Origin: a virus
Taxonomy: Duplodnaviria > Caudoviricetes
DNA length: 51,934 bases
IMG/VR virus record: IMGVR_UViG_3300035564_000113
Location: 1 to 51,934 of that record
Strand: one strand, 5' to 3'
Every line of letters begins with the position of its first letter. Position 1 is the first letter of the stretch. Position numbers and translations under genes: made by a program. The notes below the pieces were generated by a model, which did no database searches, was not told the origin of the DNA, and saw only the letters and a program-made list of their open reading frames with translations. Below, in pieces: positions 6,823 to 42,883 of the stretch.

Positions 6823-8604
6823 ATGGGCGCATCGCCCGGTATCGTCGAAAGATACGGGCTCAAGTGGGAACGCGACAAACACACCGAGTTCTCGATTGAG
6901 AGCTGGTGTTATCGCCACAACCACCCGAAAGAGAAGGGGGGTCTGGGCGCGGAAGGACATTTCCGCAAGATGTGGAAAATCATGTGGCCAAAGTTCGAGA
7001 TCAACGAGTGGGTCGAACTGATGATTTGGGCGTGGTGTAATTACAAATACATCATTGTCATCGGACATCAGCGGGCATCAAAGACTTACACATTTGCCTA
7101 CATCGCATACCTGGATTACTGTTGTTCCCCGCTGGATACGATGACCTCGATTGCGACCGTGACCTTCGAGGGGTTGCGGTTGCGCATGTGGTCTGACCTT
7201 CTGCACGCCATCGAAAGCAGCGAGGCCGTGCGCAATGGGATTCAGGATTTTGCCGTCAGGTCCACGACGAACGAGTGCCGTGTGTATCCGATAGATTCAG
7301 GACACGAGGCCGCGGAGAAGTTTCAAATCCATGGGATGAGCGTGTCGCGCACGGCGGATGCGCCTGGTCGTATCCGTGGTGGCCATGCCGACCGACGCCG
7401 GGTGATACTCGACGAATCGCAGGACATGCCGGCGGCGATCTTTGATGCGATGGTTAATCCGATGTCGGCCCCGGACGCCAAGTGTGTGCTGCTCACGAAT
7501 CCGATTGAGAAGGTCAGTCGCTTTGGCGAGTGGTGCGAACCGGCGGAAGGCTGGTCAAGCGTGGACGAGAACGACCTGTTCTGGAAATTACGGATCGGGA
7601 ATGGACAGGGTATTTGCATTCATCTGGATGGCCTCCAGTCGCCAAATTTGAAGGCGGGTAAGACGATCTACCCATACATGCTCACGCAGGAGTCGATCAA
7701 CGAAATCATCTCAAACCATGGGGCGGATTCGGTGCAGTATTGGGCGCTCGTGCGCGGGTTCTTTCCGCCGGATGGCATGGTCTCGAAGATTTGGCCCAAC
7801 TCTACGACTGAGCGAGCGAAGGCACCGATCAAGTTCGACTTCCAGCCGCAGCAATGCGCGACGCTTGACCCGGCATTCGAGTTCGACAATTGCGTAATGC
7901 ACATTGGCCAGCTCGGAATGCCGGTCTTCGGCCAACGCGACTACAAGATTAGCGGGACAGAAACACTCGTGGCCAAGCTGGACGCTGGACTGACCGCTGA
8001 GCCCAAGGACTATCAGGTAGCGCACTGGGTCATGCACGAGTGCCAGAAGCGGGGAATTTTGCCCGAGCATTTCATCATGGACACGACTGGTAATGCGCGA
8101 GGCGTGTATGCGATTCTGCAAAAGGAGTGGTCGCGAAACGTTCAGGGCGTGGAGTACGGCGGGGCGGCGACGAATCGGCCGTTGCGCGCCGATGATAACC
8201 GCAAGTGCGAAGACCTCTATCGGTGGTTCATTACGGAACTGTATTTCCGAGCTTCGGAGTGTGCCAAGGCCGGATTGCTCGGAGGGTTGTCAAATTTGGA
8301 CCGGCGAACGATTGATGATCTCTCGGCCCGGAGGTACGAATTGAAACAGGGAACCAATGGCGTCCTGATGGTCGCCGAGTCGAAAAAGGAAGTTAAGAAG
8401 CGGCTGGGTCGTTCCCCGGACTTTGGCGATGCGTTTGTGCAATGGGGAGAATTGCTGGCACGACTGGGCACCATGCCCGGCGGTGGTGCGGCGCAACGCC
8501 TGGCTCAGACCAAGGCGGCTGGGTCGCGGTGGTCACGTCAGAAAGCACGGGCATTATCCGTATCTGGTCGGTACAACGAAGAAAAAGAATTTACCTACTA
8601 CTGA
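6823..8604 (+). CDS. terL: Terminase large subunit
   Basis: Walker A-like GHQRASKT, Walker B RVILDE, coupling LTNP, nuclease LDPAF / IMDTTG / SPDFGDA. Confidence 0.92.
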   Translation: MGASPGIVERYGLKWERDKHTEFSIESWCYRHNHPKEKGGLGAEGHFRKMWKIMWPKFEINEWVELMIWAWCNYKYIIVIGHQRASKTYTFAYIAYLDYCCSPLDTMTSIATVTFEGLRLRMWSDLLHAIESSEAVRNGIQDFAVRSTTNECRVYPIDSGHEAAEKFQIHGMSVSRTADAPGRIRGGHADRRRVILDESQDMPAAIFDAMVNPMSAPDAKCVLLTNPIEKVSRFGEWCEPAEGWSSVDENDLFWKLRIGNGQGICIHLDGLQSPNLKAGKTIYPYMLTQESINEIISNHGADSVQYWALVRGFFPPDGMVSKIWPNSTTERAKAPIKFDFQPQQCATLDPAFEFDNCVMHIGQLGMPVFGQRDYKISGTETLVAKLDAGLTAEPKDYQVAHWVMHECQKRGILPEHFIMDTTGNARGVYAILQKEWSRNVQGVEYGGAATNRPLRADDNRKCEDLYRWFITELYFRASECAKAGLLGGLSNLDRRTIDDLSARRYELKQGTNGVLMVAESKKEVKKRLGRSPDFGDAFVQWGELLARLGTMPGGGAAQRLAQTKAAGSRWSRQKARALSVSGRYNEEKEFTYY

Positions 8605-33459: not shown

Positions 33460-34656
33460 ATGGCCAACTTGACAAACATCAATAGTTACTTTCTTACCCG
33501 TCGGTCGCAATTTGAGCAGAACATATTTGCAAGGTTTTGGACAACCGATCCCAATGCTGGGCTTATTGAGCAAAAGCCCTTCGAGCTGGAAATGGGCCTG
33601 ACGCCGACCGTAGTGACGGCGACGCACGATCTGCCGACGAGCTACCTGCCGCTGACGCAGACGGCGCTGGCGCTGTCCAACGGCACGGGCAACACGGCGT
33701 GCAACCCTGGCGTCGTCACGATTGGCGGCGGCTACATCACGCGCAACTTCAACCTGACGGTGAATGCGTTCCAGACGGAAGTGTTCTGCCTGACGGATCT
33801 GCAATTCAAGTTCCAGTGGGAGCAACAGGCGCGGTTCCGCGAGAAGGGGCTCGGCGACTACGTGACGCAGTTCCAAGGTGACTGGGGCCGCGTCAACAAC
33901 ATCGGCCAGCTCAACACAAAGATCAGCACCACGGGGGCCGGCGTCTTCACGCAGGCGACCAGTGCGTTGTTCGATTTCAGCGCGCTCGCCGGCTCACTGC
34001 CCACGGTGGCACTCGACTGGGCGATGCTCGGCCAACTCTACGACCGGCTCAATCAAATCGGCGCGCAGCAAAACGCGGTTGGCATGAGCGACGGTACGCC
34101 GGTGTACGCGCTGAACGTCGGTCCCGGACTCAAGCGGTTGCTCTACCAAGGCAGTTCGACGGCGGCCAGCCTTGTCCGCACGTCGGTTGACTTCATGGAC
34201 ATGGGCAAGGAGTACAGCCGGAACTTCCTGGCGCGGGGCATCGACACGGCGATCAACGGCTTCCTTCCGAACGTCGATCTGTGCCAAGTGCGCTACGATT
34301 CGCAGTTGAATCCGCTGTACCCGTATGTGAACAACCCGGTGACGGTCGGCACAGGCGCGGCGCCCAACCCCAACTACCGCACGGTGGCGAACGGCGGGTT
34401 GGCGGTTTACGAGGCGTTCACGGTCATGGCGCGCGGGGTGTACTCGAAGCGCCCGCGGCCGGTCGGACCGTTGCAGGCTGGGCTGGAGGCGTTCAATCCG
34501 GTGACGTACAGCGGCGAGGTGCGCTGGATCAACAACCCGGACATGAGCACCAATGCGCTGGGCAACTTCGGTTTCTACCGGCTGGACATCCAGCAGGCGG
34601 CCATGCCGGAGTTTCCGGAGCTGGGTTTCGCCGGGATCACCATCGCGGTCGATTGA
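33460..34656 (+). CDS. Major capsid protein
   Basis: 398 aa, strongly GC3-biased codons, followed by a hairpin; no other candidate; no diagnostic motif. Confidence 0.75.
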   Translation: MANLTNINSYFLTRRSQFEQNIFARFWTTDPNAGLIEQKPFELEMGLTPTVVTATHDLPTSYLPLTQTALALSNGTGNTACNPGVVTIGGGYITRNFNLTVNAFQTEVFCLTDLQFKFQWEQQARFREKGLGDYVTQFQGDWGRVNNIGQLNTKISTTGAGVFTQATSALFDFSALAGSLPTVALDWAMLGQLYDRLNQIGAQQNAVGMSDGTPVYALNVGPGLKRLLYQGSSTAASLVRTSVDFMDMGKEYSRNFLARGIDTAINGFLPNVDLCQVRYDSQLNPLYPYVNNPVTVGTGAAPNPNYRTVANGGLAVYEAFTVMARGVYSKRPRPVGPLQAGLEAFNPVTYSGEVRWINNPDMSTNALGNFGFYRLDIQQAAMPEFPELGFAGITIAVD

Positions 34657-34691: not shown

Positions 34692-34732
34692 GGGGCCGGC
34701 GCAGGGATACGCCGGCCCCTCCCCCATTCTTT
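34692..34732 (+). terminator. Putative terminator after the capsid gene
   Basis: GGGGCCGGCG-N8-CGCCGGCCCC stem, weak U-tract. Confidence 0.55.
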
Positions 34733-34771: not shown

Positions 34772-37270
34772 ATGAAACGCCTCTACTCGCTTTTCTTCAC
34801 ATTCGCCATGTTGGCGAATATCAACACCGCCCAGGTTGTGCCAAAGGAGAATGTGCAGCACGTTTTGGGAACAGGTAATTATGTTGGATCGAATGCCGGT
34901 GCGCTGCTCTTTACAACACCGAATGGCGGCGGGGCTGCTTTTAATTCTGTTAATACGATTGTCGCTCTTCGCTCATTGTCGATCACCGGAATGGCCAATG
35001 GCGCGCAAGGTGGCGTAGCTGGATACTATGCCGTTGGCGATGGAGGCGGAGGGCCGACGCGGGTGCTTGTCACCGGGCAGCCTGCGGGCACGTACACTGA
35101 TAATGGAGGTAGCGTCATCGTGCCGACTGGCGGTAATGGTTCTGCGGCGTGGTTGTGGCAGTATACTGGGGCAATAAATGCGCGTTGGTTCGGAGCCTAT
35201 GGCGACGGAACGCACGATGACACCGCTGCAATTCAGGCAGCGATCAACGCAACTGGCACAGCGGATTATTCGGTTGGAACAGGGGCGATGACTACCGTTC
35301 GCGGTCTTGAGGTATACGTTCCGCGCGGCACATATCTAATCACGACGCTCAACCTAAAGCGTGGAATCGTGATCCGTGGCGAATCCATGAACAGTACGGT
35401 TTTCATTCATGCGTCGGCAACGGGAAATGCGTTCAGTTTTACCAACGTAGCCGAATACGTTTCCAGCGTGCAGGACGAGGTTCACTTGCGGGACTTTTCT
35501 ATGTATCAGTCAACGCACCCCGCGTCGGGGAGCGCGATTGACTGTACCCCAACAACGTCGGCAAGCCGCACGCTGATTGATAACGTGACGATCAGCAATT
35601 TCTTCAATGGAGTGACGTTGAAAGCGCAGATCAACTCAAAGTTGAACAACGTATACATCAACGCTTATTACGGATACGGTTTTCACTTGGAGGGCACGCT
35701 TTCGTCTTTTAGGAATTGTTATGCCACGCAAGGGGTAAACAATGGCAATGCGTTCGAGTTTGAGGGTTGCGTCTACTGTAGCGCATACACGTGTTCTGCG
35801 GACGCATCTGGCGGCGCTTCGTTTCTGTTGTCGAATTGCCTTTCGACGAATCTTTATGGGTGCGCTGGAGAGGCGAACGTCTATGGCGTGAAGGTGTTTC
35901 AGTCTTACGGGTGCATCGTTGATGGATTCTTCCTTAATGTCGGTTCCACCACGATCAACTACTTGAATCTAGTGTCGGCGTACCAATGCGAATTTCGCAA
36001 TCTTTCGTATCAGGGGTTGGCTCCCGGTTACGGGAGTGGATGGGCGGTGGCTGGCGCGGATTCTCCGGTCAACGTGCAGAACTCCGTTTCGTTTGGGCAT
36101 GTGTCGGGTTCCACGGCGTTTGCGACTGGCTGGGTTCAGTCTCCGAGCGCATTTGCGAACATCTTGCTACCCGATAGCATGACCGAAAGCAAATCCAGCA
36201 CTCGCTCCATGGGTCCGGGATTGGTCGCTTTCCCGTATAACTGCAACGCGGCAGGAATCCCGCCGGCCACTACGGGCGTTTCGCTGGGGTACAATTATTC
36301 TGGCGGAGACGCAGAGGCGAACATCATTTGGGGAACGGGCTATTCGGGCTCCCCCTTGCAGTTTGCCGAATGGAGTGGAACGGCATTGACCGAGCGAGCG
36401 CGAATCGTAAACGGGAACCTTCTTTTTGGAACCACTTCGGCTACGGGACTGACAGGTGTTGGAGGCGTTAAAATCGCGTCAACCACGGCAGCGTCTTCCA
36501 GCACGGTAGGATCTCTCTTGGTTGGGAATGGAACGGCGGCGACTAACGTAGGAATTGGCGGCGGAAGTATCAACGCCGGAGCCGGTATCACGTCTTCTAC
36601 GGTCGGGTTTTCAGCCACGGCTACCGGGACCGGACTTGGGCTACACGGCGGCGGGGCGATCACCGGGGCATCTGGAGCAATCACGCTGACGGGATCGGGG
36701 ACAAACCAGAACGTCACTCTAACTCCGAGCGGGGTTGGGTACACGTTGCTGAACGGAAACGTCGGAATCGGGTCTGCGGTTCCACCGAACGCATTGTCAG
36801 TAGGAACGCCGAATGGCGCATACGGGAAGGTTGGAATCAAGCAAAGTGGAACCGCTACCTATACCGGCCTTTGGGTCGAATCATCTGATGTAAATTCCAA
36901 TACGATTACGGTTGGGCACAGCGGAACTTATGGTTCGGTCAGCACAACCTATGGTACCGGAGTCGGCGGAGGGCCGACGTACTTGGTGCTGGAAGAGTTT
37001 GGCGGTGATGTTGAAATCGGAGGCGCAGGCAACACGCTAAAGATAAAGGCCGGAAGCAATTGCCTTGCTGGCACCGTTGTTCTTACGACCGGATCAGGCA
37101 CGATCACAAGCACGGCCATTGACGCCAACACCGTGATTTTTCTTACACTCAGGACGGCAAACGGCGCGGCATCCGCTCCGCTGGTAACGCTTGGAACCGG
37201 CAGTGCGACAGTGACCGGGCTTGCAACGGATTCAGGCACATATAACTGGATTGGTTTCAAGGCATACTAA
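34772..37270 (+). CDS. Tailspike / tail fibre with pectate-lyase-3-type beta-helix
   Basis: GYYAVGDGGGG head motif, NARWFGAYGDGTHDDTAAIQAAI, VYVPRGTY, GNVGIG repeats. Confidence 0.85.
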   Translation: MKRLYSLFFTFAMLANINTAQVVPKENVQHVLGTGNYVGSNAGALLFTTPNGGGAAFNSVNTIVALRSLSITGMANGAQGGVAGYYAVGDGGGGPTRVLVTGQPAGTYTDNGGSVIVPTGGNGSAAWLWQYTGAINARWFGAYGDGTHDDTAAIQAAINATGTADYSVGTGAMTTVRGLEVYVPRGTYLITTLNLKRGIVIRGESMNSTVFIHASATGNAFSFTNVAEYVSSVQDEVHLRDFSMYQSTHPASGSAIDCTPTTSASRTLIDNVTISNFFNGVTLKAQINSKLNNVYINAYYGYGFHLEGTLSSFRNCYATQGVNNGNAFEFEGCVYCSAYTCSADASGGASFLLSNCLSTNLYGCAGEANVYGVKVFQSYGCIVDGFFLNVGSTTINYLNLVSAYQCEFRNLSYQGLAPGYGSGWAVAGADSPVNVQNSVSFGHVSGSTAFATGWVQSPSAFANILLPDSMTESKSSTRSMGPGLVAFPYNCNAAGIPPATTGVSLGYNYSGGDAEANIIWGTGYSGSPLQFAEWSGTALTERARIVNGNLLFGTTSATGLTGVGGVKIASTTAASSSTVGSLLVGNGTAATNVGIGGGSINAGAGITSSTVGFSATATGTGLGLHGGGAITGASGAITLTGSGTNQNVTLTPSGVGYTLLNGNVGIGSAVPPNALSVGTPNGAYGKVGIKQSGTATYTGLWVESSDVNSNTITVGHSGTYGSVSTTYGTGVGGGPTYLVLEEFGGDVEIGGAGNTLKIKAGSNCLAGTVVLTTGSGTITSTAIDANTVIFLTLRTANGAASAPLVTLGTGSATVTGLATDSGTYNWIGFKAY

Positions 37271-38741: not shown

Positions 38742-39079
38742 ACCGCCTGCGTACCGTTCTCGAAGAAGCCGGCAAGTTCTCCGACACGATCAGCAAAATC
38801 CTCAACGCGGCCCGCGTGCTTGGCGCTATCGTGGTGGTCTGCGTTGGCGGCTGCATTACCTCGATTCTGTGGGTGAACGCGAAAGCCGCTTCCATCGACA
38901 AGCTCGAAGCGTGGACCGCCCAAGCCGACCTTGACCGCAAGGAGATGATCAAAGAGTGGACCATGTGGCGCAGCGACATCGAAAAAGTCTTGGCCAAACT
39001 CTCCACGAATCAGGAGATGGTTATCCGACTACAGGGGCAACAGGCCGATCTCATCGCGCGCCATCTGGATAAACCGTAG
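38711..39079 (+). CDS. Single-TM coiled-coil membrane protein
   Basis: One TM segment followed by a coiled coil. Confidence 0.65.
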   Translation: MPFTMPDEDLNRLRTVLEEAGKFSDTISKILNAARVLGAIVVVCVGGCITSILWVNAKAASIDKLEAWTAQADLDRKEMIKEWTMWRSDIEKVLAKLSTNQEMVIRLQGQQADLIARHLDKP

Positions 39080-39147: not shown

Positions 39148-39213
39148 AGGATTGCTCAATGAGTGGTTAGGTTGGTCAGGGGATTGCGGCGCAGAGGCAG
39201 TGAGAGGCGCGTC

Positions 39214-39233
39214 GGTCATCTTAGGTGTTCGGC
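39214..39233 (+). mobile_element. attC-like right half-site
   Basis: GGTC-atcttaggt-GTTCGGC, same 9-nt spacer sequence as site A. Confidence 0.55.
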
Positions 39234-39234
39234 A

Positions 39235-39405
39235 CTAGCGTTTTCTCCAATCATAAACGATGTTGTTTATCGCTCGGTCTATAGCTCTCCACTGTTTATT
39301 CGCGCGAGTAGCACATTTCGATTTTGCCGAACCAGACGCCCGAGCCAACGGCGCGGAAACGTCCGTCCGGCTGGCCTTAGTGGTGAGTGTCGCGCCGTGG
39401 CTCAT
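39235..39405 (-). CDS. Cassette 1 ORF, 56 aa (not in ORF track)
   Basis: MSHGATLTTK...VYDWRKR; ATG lies in the right arm of site A. Confidence 0.45.
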   Translation of the reverse strand: MSHGATLTTKASRTDVSAPLARASGSAKSKCATRANKQWRAIDRAINNIVYDWRKR

Positions 39406-39418
39406 CTTAGGTTTAGGC
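39326..39418 (+). mobile_element. attC-like site A
   Basis: GCCGAAC-N9-GAGCCAACGGCGCG...CGCGCCGTGGCTC-N9-TTAGGC (G of GTT missing); one unpaired base. Confidence 0.75.
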
Positions 39419-39727
39419 TTGCCTGAGTGTTTCGTTTATGTTCACGCGAATTGGCGATTTCTTCCCCACTCCGCAGGTGGCTAGTGCGGCATCGGCTCGC
39501 ACGAGCATTTCTATGAGGCGCTGGATTTTCAGCGCGTCGGATGCTTGCCACGCAATGAGGTTGGAATACCCATCTCGGAGCCGGGCTATTTCCGCCATGC
39601 GTTTTTGCGCGAGGTCATGCCAGTACTTTCCGTGCTCGGAAGGAGACAAAAATCGCCTAACCAAGCGTCCAGAGCCAACGGCACTGACGTGCCGTTGGGC
39701 GGTAGTCTTCTTTCTTTTCGTTGACAT
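39413..39727 (-). CDS. Cassette 2 ORF, hypothetical coiled-coil protein
   Basis: MSTKRKK start inside site B; TAA stop is the TTA of the site A core. Confidence 0.65.
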   Translation of the reverse strand: MSTKRKKTTAQRHVSAVGSGRLVRRFLSPSEHGKYWHDLAQKRMAEIARLRDGYSNLIAWQASDALKIQRLIEMLVRADAALATCGVGKKSPIRVNINETLRQA

Positions 39728-39768
39728 AGAATTGTCCTCAGTGCCGCGGCTCATACGCGGCGTTCGAT
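39655..39768 (+). mobile_element. attC-like site B
   Basis: GCCTAAC-N10-GAGCCAACGGCACTGA...TCAGTGCCGCGGCTC-N9-GTTCGAT. Confidence 0.8.
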
Positions 39769-39965
39769 TTGTCCACGAGCCGTAGGAGTTCGTCGCGGCA
39801 GTACAGAAGATTGGCGGTATCTCCGAGGGTCTGGTGATACCGATTAAGCCAAGTCTCTGCGAGGTATTCGAGTTCCCGGTGCAGCGCCGAAATCGAACCA
39901 GTCGCCACAGCGCAATTCGCACGCTGGGCCTCGGGGGCGGATACAGAGTCAGGGAGAGTGCTCAT
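39738..39965 (-). CDS. Cassette 3 ORF, hypothetical
   Basis: MSTLPDS start in the site C arm; TGA stop in the site B arm. Confidence 0.65.
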   Translation of the reverse strand: MSTLPDSVSAPEAQRANCAVATGSISALHRELEYLAETWLNRYHQTLGDTANLLYCRDELLRLVDKSNAAYEPRH

Positions 39966-39986
39966 GGCTGGTCTTTCAAGTTCGAC
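39892..39986 (+). mobile_element. attC-like site C
   Basis: ATCGAAC-N9-CAGCGCAATTCGCAC...GTGCTCATGGCTG-N9-GTTCGAC; imperfect stem. Confidence 0.65.
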
Positions 39987-40201
39987 GTGAAGGCGGACGC
40001 TGGCACCCACACGACGATGCCCACGTAATCAGCGGCTTTCCCGGCCATCACGCTGCGGGCGAGTTGCGAGGCTACTTCGGGTTCGGTCGAAAATGTGACT
40101 TCCGCGTGGGTTTTCTTTTGTTCCATTGCCACGAAAGAGCCGTCGAGTCGTTGATGTTTTAGGCCGTTTCCGGCGCGTTGCAGTAGTTCAATGAGTCTCA
40201 T
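39962..40201 (-). CDS. Hypothetical protein
   Basis: ATGA overlaps; ends within site C. Confidence 0.65.
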   Translation of the reverse strand: MRLIELLQRAGNGLKHQRLDGSFVAMEQKKTHAEVTFSTEPEVASQLARSVMAGKAADYVGIVVWVPASAFTSNLKDQP

Positions 40202-40449
40202 GGTTTTCTTTCGATGAATTTGCCTTTCTTGGCTCGGAGCTGGTGGATGACCCAGCGTTCGTCAACACTCAGGATCACCTTCTCGTACCCCATCCTTCTG
40301 AGGATGGTGTAGACGTAGGTTTCGGCGACGCGCAACTCAGCGGCGATGTCCTTGACTTCGCGTGACTCTGCGATGCCGCGCACGCAGGCGTTTTTTAGCG
40401 CGTCGGTTTCTGCGGGTGTGCGCTTGTGCTGGCCGGGGCGGATTTTCAT
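40198..40449 (-). CDS. HTH DNA-binding protein
   Basis: EVKDIAAELRVAETYVYTILRRMG. Confidence 0.7.
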   Translation of the reverse strand: MKIRPGQHKRTPAETDALKNACVRGIAESREVKDIAAELRVAETYVYTILRRMGYEKVILSVDERWVIHQLRAKKGKFIERKP

Positions 40450-40453
40450 GGGA

Positions 40454-40894
40454 TTAATAGTCGCCATCTTGCCAGTTGAGTTTGGCATCTTTCCATTGCG
40501 CGGCTCCTCCAAGTGAGTTGAAAAGCGCACGAGCTTTTGCCGCAAGTTTGATTGCCTTGTTTCGTTTTAGCTTATCGGCCTTACAGTCTTTCTCATATCG
40601 AGCCGTGACTTCTTCCCGATAGCCCTTGCAATGGCCAAACTGACGGTTCCAATCGTCCGTTGTCAGTTTCTTCATGGCCTCAACTCGGAAAGCGTCGTTG
40701 CCAATTTCCGCTTCGCTTTTCACGCCACGAATTGGAGCCATTCCAGCAATGATCTTTTCGAGGCCAACGATAGCGGTTACTGCGCTCTGCCCCTCGGGAA
40801 TTTCTACGGTCAAGTCATAGCGCACATTCTCGTAGTTGCCGAGGTTGTAGAGACGCCCGACGGTGATTCTGCTGATGCGTGCTTGTTTTTTCAT
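40454..40894 (-). CDS. Hypothetical protein
   Basis: GRLYNLGNYENVRYDL, a motif common in phage proteins. Confidence 0.65.
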   Translation of the reverse strand: MKKQARISRITVGRLYNLGNYENVRYDLTVEIPEGQSAVTAIVGLEKIIAGMAPIRGVKSEAEIGNDAFRVEAMKKLTTDDWNRQFGHCKGYREEVTARYEKDCKADKLKRNKAIKLAAKARALFNSLGGAAQWKDAKLNWQDGDY

Positions 40895-41406
40895 GTGATT
40901 GCAGTGGTTGTTGGTTGAAATCTTCGGGAGCGTAGTTCGTCCCACGCTTCGCGGTCGAATACCGGGTCCGATGACATATCAATCGGCGATGCTTCGTGGT
41001 AGTCTTCGATCCACGCTTGGCGCTCTTTCTTCCAACTGAATCCATCGTCGTTCACGCAGATTGCGTCTGCCTCGGGCTCGGTTGCCTGCCGCAAAGCGGA
41101 TAAGATACAGGCAGGACAGTTATGCGCCACAATACGAAGGGTGTCTATTTTACGCTCGATCTCTTTTGGAATGCCTTCGCCAGAATCTCCAAGGGTGAAC
41201 GCTTCATATCCGGGTCTGTCGCCGTACTTGATCGCGGCGATTAGGTCAGCCATCGGAGCCTGCTTGTCGCCGACCGCTGCGCACATGCGGCAAACACGAT
41301 TCGGGTTCTTCGTGCAATGAATCTCGTGCTTCGCAATCGCACCGCCCGAGCAGTTCGCCTTCCCGCAGAAGTCGCATTTGTAGCGCCAAGTCTGGTATCG
41401 TTTCAT
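40891..41406 (-). CDS. Zn-finger protein
   Basis: YKCDFCGK...HEIHC..NP..CRMC, CPAC. Confidence 0.7.
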   Translation of the reverse strand: MKRYQTWRYKCDFCGKANCSGGAIAKHEIHCTKNPNRVCRMCAAVGDKQAPMADLIAAIKYGDRPGYEAFTLGDSGEGIPKEIERKIDTLRIVAHNCPACILSALRQATEPEADAICVNDDGFSWKKERQAWIEDYHEASPIDMSSDPVFDREAWDELRSRRFQPTTTAIT

Positions 41407-42005
41407 GGGATTAGTTTCAGGATTTCAGGTCTGAGAAGTGGCGAAACGTCGAACCACGCGACCGTAGCGAAGTCGCACGGGTTTCCCCAGTCTGCGGCGT
41501 CAGGATAACGCTTGCGGGCGACCTCGCGCCAGCCGGTGGGAGGCTCTTGGTAAATATCCATCTTGGCTGTGCGCGTGCGCTCCGTGCGCTGGGTGGCAAT
41601 TTCGTGCCAATGAGCCGCGACCGCCATCGGGCCGCAGTTGTCGAATTTCTTGCGCACGTAGCGGCAACCGCGCTCCAAATCTTCGGCGGTCACGGTCGGG
41701 TCAACCTCGCGGATTTCAGCCAGCGCCTTGCCAATCGTTCCGGCGGCGGCTCGGGTGATCTTGCCGTTGTGCCCGAATCCGGCTGCTATGGCGTCGAAAA
41801 GCACATTGCGACCGTTCACTGCTCTGGCCTTCTTCGGCATTTCCTTGGCCAAGGCGGGGCGCAAAGCGGCGAGCAGGGCATCTTCCGTCAGCTTGTACGC
41901 CGGGTTACCCTGGCGGGCCGCCATCACGGCAGCCCAGCACGCCCGGGCGACGCGCGTAGCGGCGTCTTCGGGCGGCATTCCGGGGAGCTGGGGTGTCGCG
42001 ATCAT
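41403..42005 (-). CDS. Hypothetical protein (possibly replication-related)
   Basis: Trimmed to MIATPQL; ATGA overlaps. Confidence 0.55.
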   Translation of the reverse strand: MIATPQLPGMPPEDAATRVARACWAAVMAARQGNPAYKLTEDALLAALRPALAKEMPKKARAVNGRNVLFDAIAAGFGHNGKITRAAAGTIGKALAEIREVDPTVTAEDLERGCRYVRKKFDNCGPMAVAAHWHEIATQRTERTRTAKMDIYQEPPTGWREVARKRYPDAADWGNPCDFATVAWFDVSPLLRPEILKLIP

Positions 42006-42883
42006 ACTCCGCACATCCCCTCGCATTCGTTGCCAAACATCACCTGCTGTCCGTTGTCCTCGTCGGTAGATAGGTCTACCTCGTTTAATGGCTTGCAAGA
42101 TCGGTGCAAAAACAGTTGCGAGGTTCGCGAAAGATTCAGCGCCTTCTCGAATTGCAGCGCCTTCTCGAATTGCAGCGCCTTCTCGAATTGCAGCGCCTTC
42201 TCGAATTGCAGCGCCTTCTCGAATTGCAGCGCCTTCTCGAATTCAGTCGGCTCGAAATCCCGCAACCGACGCCATTCCTTATCCGAATGGAATGGGCAAT
42301 AACGGCACGCCGAGCGCGGGGGCGTTGGGAACTTGTGCGCAGCCATCCATCGAAGGCAATCATGCCGTGTCATGTTCGCGTCGATCAACGGCCAATGGGT
42401 TTTCAGATAGGCGTGCCGAGATGGCTTCATCCTCGAAATTTCATCGAGCGTTATCCCGATCCATTGAATTGCTATCACGGTTTTACCGCCTCGTTTCACT
42501 CCGGCGAGCTCTTTTATTTTTCGTTGAATCGGGACCAACTTAAAGTCTCTCGTGCAGGCGCGATTTTGAACCATCGCCTTCGTGCCATCGGAGGATAGGG
42601 TGAACGCAGGGAACGAAGTCTTGTTGAACATTGAGCCCTTTTTGCTCTTTCTGAGCGTCAGGATGGACTTCCCAAGGCTTCCCGCCGTCACCCGATAGAC
42701 CGGGTATGGGAGTTGTTTTTCAAGCCAGTCAAGCCAAGTGTAGACGCTCGCCGGCTCGTCTTGCGTGTCGGCAAAGATCGCGGCGGTCGGCATTGGCGTT
42801 ATCTCGCCGCACGCCGCCATAAGCGCCATCGTGGATGACTGTACGCCTGCCCCAAGGGAAATTACGTGAATAGGATCGCTCAT
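42002..42883 (-). CDS. PAPS-reductase-like (PP-loop) protein
   Basis: SLGAGVQSS, FADT, SACRYCPFH, C-terminal ECEGMCGV. Confidence 0.8.
   Translation of the reverse strand: MSDPIHVISLGAGVQSSTMALMAACGEITPMPTAAIFADTQDEPASVYTWLDWLEKQLPYPVYRVTAGSLGKSILTLRKSKKGSMFNKTSFPAFTLSSDGTKAMVQNRACTRDFKLVPIQRKIKELAGVKRGGKTVIAIQWIGITLDEISRMKPSRHAYLKTHWPLIDANMTRHDCLRWMAAHKFPTPPRSACRYCPFHSDKEWRRLRDFEPTEFEKALQFEKALQFEKALQFEKALQFEKALQFEKALNLSRTSQLFLHRSCKPLNEVDLSTDEDNGQQVMFGNECEGMCGV
42137..42243. repeat. 18-bp perfect tandem repeat, ~6 copies
   Basis: CAGCGCCTTCTCGAATTG x6 (last copy lacks 1 nt), encoding FEKALQ. Confidence 0.97.

Follow-up and report, generated by a model that had tools for sequence, protein, structure and literature searches.

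Putative mirrored gene cassettes with attC sites of a Verrucomicrobiota family at the end of an early operon in an uncultured phage

The window analysed here is the whole of IMG/VR record IMGVR_UViG_3300035564_000113, a complete viral genome (Duplodnaviria; Caudoviricetes) of 51,934 bp with direct terminal repeats. Its plus-strand structural and lysis genes finish at 39079, and the genes on its minus strand extend leftward from the right end to about 39235; this leftward set includes genes for an Erf-like annealing protein, a RecE-like exonuclease, a RusA-like resolvase and a PAPS-reductase-like protein. Four open reading frames (ORF1 to ORF4) occupy the distal end of the leftward early operon, together with three hairpin sites, A, B and C, which all lie within 663 nt and which resemble attC, the recombination site of integron gene cassettes (Table 1). 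Integrons are bacterial gene-capture platforms in which the sites lie between the genes and expression proceeds from one promoter. Comparison of the window with other viral and bacterial genomes suggests that its hairpin sites are attC sites which the phage genes enter, read through and leave on the attC bottom strand.

A preliminary description of this DNA had listed the ORFs between 39235 and 40201 with their overlaps and peptides, all of which were reproduced at their coordinates. The ORF4 stop and the ORF3 start fall within site C, where the TGA of ORF4 overlaps the ATG of ORF3 at 39965. ORF3, whose peptide includes ...ANCAVATGS, stops at 39738 inside site B, and its TGA (39738-39740) overlaps a GAGGA Shine-Dalgarno motif sited 7 nt before an ATG at 39727. 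Site B also contains both candidate starts of ORF2: the ATG at 39727, which has this Shine-Dalgarno motif, and an upstream in-frame ATG at 39754, overlooked in the preliminary description, from which the peptide (MSRGTEDNSMSTKRKK...) resembles the N-terminus of the homologue P0003. The ORF2 stop is the TAA (39413-39415) of the site A core, in R'', and stands 7 nt before the ORF1 ATG at 39405, which lies in L'' of the same site; the ORF1 peptide includes APLARASGSA. The gene calls of the collection hold ORF5, ORF4, ORF3 and a short form of ORF2, and none between 39080 and 39412 (ORF1 is uncalled).

Table 1. Putative attC sites, associated hairpin and open reading frames at the distal end of the leftward early operon.
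Feature	Coordinates	Strand	Description
Site A	39325-39419	-	putative attC, read as bottom strand; R'' GCCTAAAC, L'' ATGAGCCACGGCGCG, L' CGCGCCGTTGGCTC, R' GGTTCGGC
Site B	39654-39769	-	putative attC, bottom strand; R'' ATCGAAC, L'' ATGAGCCGCGGCAC, 54-nt loop, L' GTGCCGTTGGCTC, R' GGTTAGGC
Hairpin B	39675-39698		local perfect 10-bp hairpin in the site B loop; alternative partner for the L' arm
Site C	39891-39987	-	putative decayed attC; R''-like GTCGAAC, ATG in a shifted L''-like box, R'-like GGTTCGAT
Possible fourth-site remnant	39205-39234	-	GCCGAAC, 7 nt, ATGACCGACGCGCC; starts right after the ORF1 stop; weak
ORF4	39962-40201	-	79 aa, phrog_6851; phage backbone gene; final residues and stop encoded by site C
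ORF3	39738-39965	-	75 aa; start in site C; last 8 codons and stop in site B
ORF2	39413-39754	-	113 aa if started at 39754 (L'' ATG), 104 aa if started at 39727
ORF1	39235-39405	-	56 aa; start is the L'' ATG of site A; coding status doubtful

On the minus strand, sites A and B share two mutually pairing blocks, ATGAGCC[A/G]CGGC and GCCGTTGGCTC, with two compensatory changes between the two sites. A family pattern was written from them (minus strand), ATGAGCCNCGGC N{30,60} GCCGTTGGCTC, and both sites match it. Outside the window, viral contigs held 8 pattern sites in 7 loci, and all eight are flanked by a YTAAC or GAAC core, 5-14 nt away on the upstream side, and by a GTT[C/A]G some 9 nt away on the downstream side, these cores being absent from the pattern. 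Bacterial genomes held 32 distinct pattern sites in 27 loci, namely 20 with both the AAC and the GTT core, three with the GTT core only (the upstream core being mutated) and nine without either core, which are unrelated matches inside long ordinary ORFs. The 20 two-core sites come from Opitutaceae bacterium EW11, from other Verrucomicrobiota metagenome-assembled genomes and from one short contig binned as Paceibacterota. The reversed pattern gave no match in five genomes.

The family also occurs beside integron integrase genes. With the integrase model TIGR02249 (NCBIfam), whose curated cut-off is 265 bits, all five family-bearing genomes tested scored above the cut-off (374-437 bits), against none of 14 controls. 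A family site lies 0.7 kb upstream of intI in one genome (G009) and 6.7 kb upstream in another (G008); in the remaining three of the five, the exact-pattern copies do not adjoin intI. Opitutaceae bacterium EW11 (G006) carries at least 14 exact-pattern copies on eight contigs; on the contigs C10, C17 and C33, with 3-4 copies each, the copies have the same orientation within each contig, and intI lies on a separate contig (C45). These copies are probably a large chromosomal integron fragmented by assembly. The host group of the phage is probably Verrucomicrobiota (Opitutaceae and relatives).

In a 30-sequence alignment of the family sites, 92.9% of cells pair, versus 17-44% when the partners are slid; the R box pairs in 83.5% of cells, and covariation is seen at the first pair outside the pattern (GC 8, UA 7, CG 4, UG 4, AU 2). 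The family stem comprises 11 pairs, and on the ATGAGCC strand its 3' arm, opposite AAC, carries a single unpaired T. The stem of site A has 13 pairs and one bulged T, and this site shows a close likeness to the sites of the viral loci L020 and L016. In site B, the 5' arm also pairs with the distal segment in an alignment to a model of real attC sites (R2, described below), and not with the partner in the local hairpin alone. Hairpin B itself is specific to the window: the peptides of the homologues P0002 and P0003 permit at most 7 of its 10 pairs in the same register. Two other roles considered for hairpin B were rejected, that of an operator, its half-site not being enriched (18 matches versus 12.9 ± 3.7), and that of a terminator, its T-run encoding a conserved Phe-Leu.

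Three covariance models were used. R1 was built from the 15 attC sites of Vibrio phage MK672802, a phage which carries a real integron (PMC9892861), and these sites also served as the calibration set. R2 combines the R1 sites with seven class 1 attC sites and has no family sequence in training, and R3 is the family model, with site C not in its training set. R1 generalises beyond Vibrio, as shown by its recovery of seven class 1 attC-like sites that accompany the cassette genes of MH445380 (15.5-26.5 bits; best background 13.2). R2 gives 25.5-38.9 bits to the family members of the viral loci L015, L016, L018, L019 and L028/L048 and finds additional attC sites beside the family members on L015, L016, L017 and L019. 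Several attC sites each are borne by the larger viral clusters L016:7049-8807, L019:7253-8236 and L015:1075-1938; L016 has four (R2 matches at 7049, 7285 and 8681, and the pattern site at 8385). Within the window, site B is the best match of R1 (11.7 bits) and the sole match of R2 in 52 kb, with both strands searched and filters off (39655-39768, plus strand). R3 detects A, B and the untrained site C (17.9 bits, E 0.006), the latter being the best untrained R3 match in 52 kb (next 12.3 bits), and by this match site C can be regarded as a decayed family member. The candidate for a fourth site is weak: R3 gives it 5.9 bits in a 251-nt search, and its alignment to the 5' part of site A covers 37 columns at 78% identity with an E of 3.2.

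The preliminary description had spoken of attC-like recombination sites. The presence of the family in intI-bearing Verrucomicrobiota, the R2 matches, the flanking cores and the covariation together support their assignment to a family of attC sites that occurs next to integron integrases in Verrucomicrobiota.

Three lines bear on the polarity of the sites: (i) R2, which was trained on top strands running away from intI, matches the strand opposite ATGAGCC in site B of the window and at L015, L016, L018, L019 and L028, and at L017 two of three weak R2 matches gave the opposite-strand result; (ii) the ATGAGCC strand faces intI in G008 and G009, an argument that assumes the canonical platform layout (PMC8946536); (iii) an unpaired T on the arm opposite AAC is described for attC bottom strands (PMC5027507), and the unpaired T of the family stands on the arm opposite AAC, agreeing with bottom-strand polarity. 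The three lines agree, and they support the view that the ATGAGCC strand, which is the minus strand of the window and its gene strand, is the attC bottom strand. All ORFs of 39235-40201 do lie on the minus strand, which the preliminary description had recognised as opposite to the classical cassette orientation. A classical cassette is a promoterless top-strand ORF followed by its attC; the phage genes lie on the bottom strand and have the attC at their 5' end. In the bacterial arrays, a rough ORF survey found the larger ORFs on the other strand, with their ends 3-18 nt ahead of a site, as in the canonical layout; unlike these, the phage genes are mirrored.

Starts and stops were counted at 10 sites, from the window and from viral contigs. 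An upstream same-strand ORF stops on the core TAA at five of them (window A, L016, L017, L019 and L020), and an ORF starts at a site-internal ATG and reads past R' at eight, with at least 50 codons at six. This survey and the window ORFs uphold the earlier observation that genes start, read through and stop inside the sites. It had further been proposed that each site supplies the start codon and N-terminus of its own cassette gene and the stop or C-terminus of its neighbour. The first part stands: with a crossover between AA and C of the core, the site body, with start codon and N-terminus, moves with the gene behind it. The second part applies to GAAC cores (sites B and C) only, at which the neighbour supplies the last 7-8 residues and the stop, and fails at TAAC cores, at which the stop is the gene's own last triplet, as in ORF2 at site A and in four viral relatives.

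ORF2, with four close homologues and 23 profile hits, can be taken as a real protein on the grounds of this conservation. When it is read through site B, L' yields AVGSG and R' yields LVRR (peptide AVGSGRLVR), and in its closest homologues the conserved residues MSH, VGSG and VRR correspond to the translated L'', L' and R'; two other homologues have no site-encoded extension. Homologues of ORF2 keep VGSGxxVRRFLSP uninterrupted across the B core. This continuity in P0002 and P0003 was considered as an argument against a site at this position, and was dropped, the residues being the translated L' and R'. Relatives of ORF2 or ORF3 were not found in the viral contigs, and neither ORF2 nor ORF3 was found in five related viral records; the metagenome scans gave two distant loci only. 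As a separate observation, the ORF2 family (including P0008-P0027) consists of small two-module proteins with the motifs FLSPxEHGKYWHDLAQER and LVRADxALxxCGVxKKSPVRVNIN, and the two modules also occur apart, with other partners.

Two junctions coincide with cores. Site A of the window and the site of viral contig L020 encode MSHGATL...SAPLA.ASGS, with 20 of 26 residues identical, and the two sequences are unrelated directly after the GTT core. The first 26 residues of ORF1 are in the same frame as the L020 ORF that starts in the homologous site; the idea that ORF1 is a frameshifted paralogue of the ORF2 N-terminus was unsupported by a small hidden Markov model, and the site family accounts for the resemblance. 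The second junction lies in ORF4, which is 75-79% identical to genes of two other viruses (L002 and L003) with unrelated flanks: the homology spans the ATG to ...AFT(S), that is, to the start of the site C core, after which the three C-terminal tails differ. Both results favour the preliminary description, which had proposed as a test that sequence beyond the core be unrelated behind N-termini encoded antisense to attC, as now found for site A and L020, and had named as refuting the lack of a modular switch at the cores, a switch now found for ORF4 at site C. The ORF4 alignment search gave no further viral relatives, and none in the genome contigs. The ORF4 junction would be consistent with an array inserted into the 3'-terminal part of this gene, at an AAC.

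The L020 ORF merits a description of its own. This 300-aa chimeric ORF (L020:4513-5415, minus strand) starts at the L'' ATG of the attC of the viral contig, and its residues 63-279 match positions 99-315 of TIGR02249 (271.5 bits, cut-off 265), which is the C-terminal two-thirds of an integron integrase. This match suggests that the contig bears an intI truncated at its 5' end and joined to an attC; an assignment to the C5 methyltransferases was ruled out by the Pfam/NCBIfam match to integron integrase. A PAPS-reductase-domain gene lies just upstream of it.

A cluster of attC sites lacking an integron integrase (CALIN) is defined by at least two attC sites within 4 kb with intI not nearby (PMC4889954), which corresponds to what is seen for sites A to C. 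We interpret 39205-39987 as a probable CALIN at the distal end of the leftward early operon, made of mirrored cassettes with sites of the Verrucomicrobiota attC family, and give this interpretation a probability of roughly 0.6. A number of results weigh against it. The cores of attC sites are described as R'' RYYYAAC and R' GTTRRRY, inverse sites at both ends (PMC5027507), and the cores of sites A and C deviate from these consensus sequences. Site B is the only one of the three with a consensus core pair (39655-39700), and pairs missing the consensus by one position are the outer pair of B (ATCGAAC/GTTAGGC) and the cores of A (GCCTAAAC, GTTCGGC) and of C (GTCGAAC, GTTCGAT). Fold energies are ordinary, with z from -0.4 to -1.4 for A and about 0 for C. 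Under the real-attC model R2, site B reaches only 16.3 bits (E 0.096), and sites A and C gave no match with R1 or R2. Most L-box pairs of the family are fixed by the search pattern and hence carry no conservation weight. A complete integron would have intI, attI and the promoter Pc in cis, and no tyrosine recombinase (PF00589) was found among the proteins of the complete 51.9-kb phage genome. Finally, no homologues were found for ORF3 or for ORF1, the ORF2 family is absent from the five Verrucomicrobial genomes, and ORF1 has a coding score of -0.14 bits per codon and no Shine-Dalgarno motif; the status of ORF1 as a gene is doubtful.

The points that concern cores and folds can be set beside real sites. 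A strict core scan on the real Vibrio array found 3 core pairs where 16 real sites exist; this test has little power, because real Vibrio attC sites mostly fail it too. The 15 real attC sites from Vibrio did no better when their folds were tested in the same way (mean z -1.08), and only about half of them showed end-to-end pairing in the best fold. The negative results obtained from the window alone thus had no power, because real attC sites score alike on them.

This calibration also bears on a different explanation, namely that the region holds ordinary, tightly packed small phage genes and that the sites are chance inverted repeats. Seen from within the window, ATGA-type overlaps are the rule in the genome (43 candidate junctions), a self-BLAST aligns A with B over 48 columns at 75% identity with an E of only 0.16 and aligns site C with neither, an einverted-like scan gives 29 inverted repeats as strong as A/B versus 23 ± 6 in shuffles, and half-sites are not enriched. 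Site C went undetected by the self-BLAST and by an nhmmer profile of one arm, and neither an Rfam search nor blastn against the phages collection gave a match. Chance hairpins were indeed the initial reading of the sites, which was dropped after the calibration on real attC sites and the family search. Chance repeats do not account for a family that recurs at 7 viral loci and about 18 bacterial ones, has cores that had not been part of the search, adjoins intI, is recognised by models of real attC sites and shows covariation. Sites A to C exceed chance, and this is apparent only through comparison with other genomes; the explanation by chance is refuted, and the probability left to it is negligible.

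Under the CALIN interpretation, the array would consist of two clear sites (A and B), one decayed site (C) and perhaps a remnant, and its sense strand would be the attC bottom strand. Each cassette, read 5' to 3' on the sense strand, would comprise C, a spacer, L'' (ATGAGCC...), the loop, L', R' (GTTNGGC), the gene body and ...YTAA, and would thereby supply its gene with a start codon and some 25 N-terminal residues encoded by attC. With TAAC as the next core, the cassette would have its own stop; with GAAC, the gene would run 7-8 codons into the site of its neighbour. The cassettes may have entered by IntI-mediated insertion at the AAC in the 3' end of ORF4, and, while the phage infects its host, the host's IntI could still cut them out or swap them. 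Translation of each gene would depend on ribosomes arriving from the preceding gene, because the stop lies about 10 nt before an ATG that is buried in the L''/L' stem. A broader proposal, which we advance tentatively and at somewhat less than even odds, is that Verrucomicrobiota phages hold their own pool of mirror-image cassettes, in which the attC hairpin would act as a translation module (stop, start codon and a tag of about 25 residues) and the host integrase could swap genes with frames and translational coupling kept.

The sites might instead be real attC sites that are now dead relics, left by a single old capture of a host integron through illegitimate or homologous recombination, the ORFs exploiting or overprinting the inverted insert. 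The Erf-like, RecE-like and RusA-like proteins of the phage could drive such a capture, the phage lacks an integrase, decay is seen in site C and in the candidate fourth site, and ORF1 has no coding signal. On this explanation it would be hard to see why unrelated viral contigs share the mirrored layout, with its stop on the core TAA and its start at the L'' ATG, why a near-identical site stands ahead of different genes in the window and in L020, and why ORF2 is conserved, its close homologues retaining the site-encoded N-terminus. We consider dead relics unlikely, if far from negligible.

Another suggestion is that the hairpin works mainly in RNA, as a translation-control stem that hides the start codon and is reused by phages, recombination having no role in the phage. 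The position of the ATG in the L'' arm of a 13-pair stem, the upstream stop about 10 nt before it and the two alternative partners of the L' arm in site B are all consistent with such a stem. It leaves the AAC and GTT cores, the arrays beside intI and the junctions at cores unexplained, and as the main function of the hairpin it seems quite improbable; it is compatible with the CALIN interpretation rather than an alternative to it.

Parts of this arrangement have precedents. A survey of 10,705 phage genomes found 17 CALINs, and of six attC sites tested, five were recombined by IntI1 (Qi et al. 2023, PMC9892861). The window is like these phage CALINs in having attC sites and cassettes in a phage genome without an integron integrase. 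According to the same source, the CALINs of TJE1 and PH101 are typical arrays with cassettes in one direction; unlike in that layout, the cassette genes here are on the bottom strand, with starts in L'' or the loop, coding sequence that continues across L' and R', and stops in the next core. Cury et al. (2016, PMC4889954) report integrons from Verrucomicrobia. In genomes with IntI, the bacterial relatives of the sites make up homogeneous attC arrays of one orientation, as in sedentary chromosomal integrons with lineage-specific attC families such as the Vibrio VCRs, and the Vibrio control array has the same appearance. Short ORFs in attI and attC (ORF-11, ORF-18 and ORFs within attC) couple translation by termination-reinitiation (PMC8876359), and the phage sites are similar in being recombination sites with start and stop codons, from which ribosomes would be passed to the next cassette; those ORFs are short top-strand peptides, whereas in the phage the site encodes the beginning of the cassette protein proper, and does so on the bottom strand. 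Synthetic attC sites have been built in arbitrary sequence, their function depending on structure and tolerating imposed sequence (Nivina et al. 2020, PMC7439510); these were engineered, whereas the window sites are natural. IntI-mediated insertion of cassettes outside att sites (bioRxiv 10.1101/2022.09.11.507474) offers a possible secondary-site route into a phage gene, here suggested for the 3' end of ORF4. In the full-text excerpts searched, supplements excluded, no description of bottom-strand cassette genes starting inside attC was found.

With attC sites inside genes on the other strand, one sequence would be both a recombination hairpin and a coding sequence. If the sites are active, they would permit a site-specific, frame-safe exchange of small early genes, many of them maybe involved in host takeover or counter-defence, would explain sharp mosaic junctions near gene ends, and would let the host integrase link the phage and host gene pools. 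The family also gives a host lead for an uncultured phage, towards Opitutaceae-type Verrucomicrobiota, and a testable pair, formed by the phage attC sites and the cognate IntI of the cultured relative Oleiharenicola sp. Vm1.

Some further repeats were noted in the genome. An exact 13-nt repeat, TAATCCCATGAAA (minus strand), stands at two gene starts (40444-40456 and 41401-41413), with different frames relative to the upstream stop, and a third copy at 85% lies at 40889-40901. A perfect 10-bp GC-rich hairpin with an 8-nt loop is present at 34692-34719, between the ORFs 33460-34656 and 34772-37270; it and hairpin B are the only tight perfect hairpins in the genome. Finally, SAFSNC is repeated six times in tandem in the translation of about 42180-42300 (in the plus-strand frame of ORF 41547-42302), so that the DNA should hold a tandem repeat of 18 nt close to where the 231-aa minus-strand gene starts.

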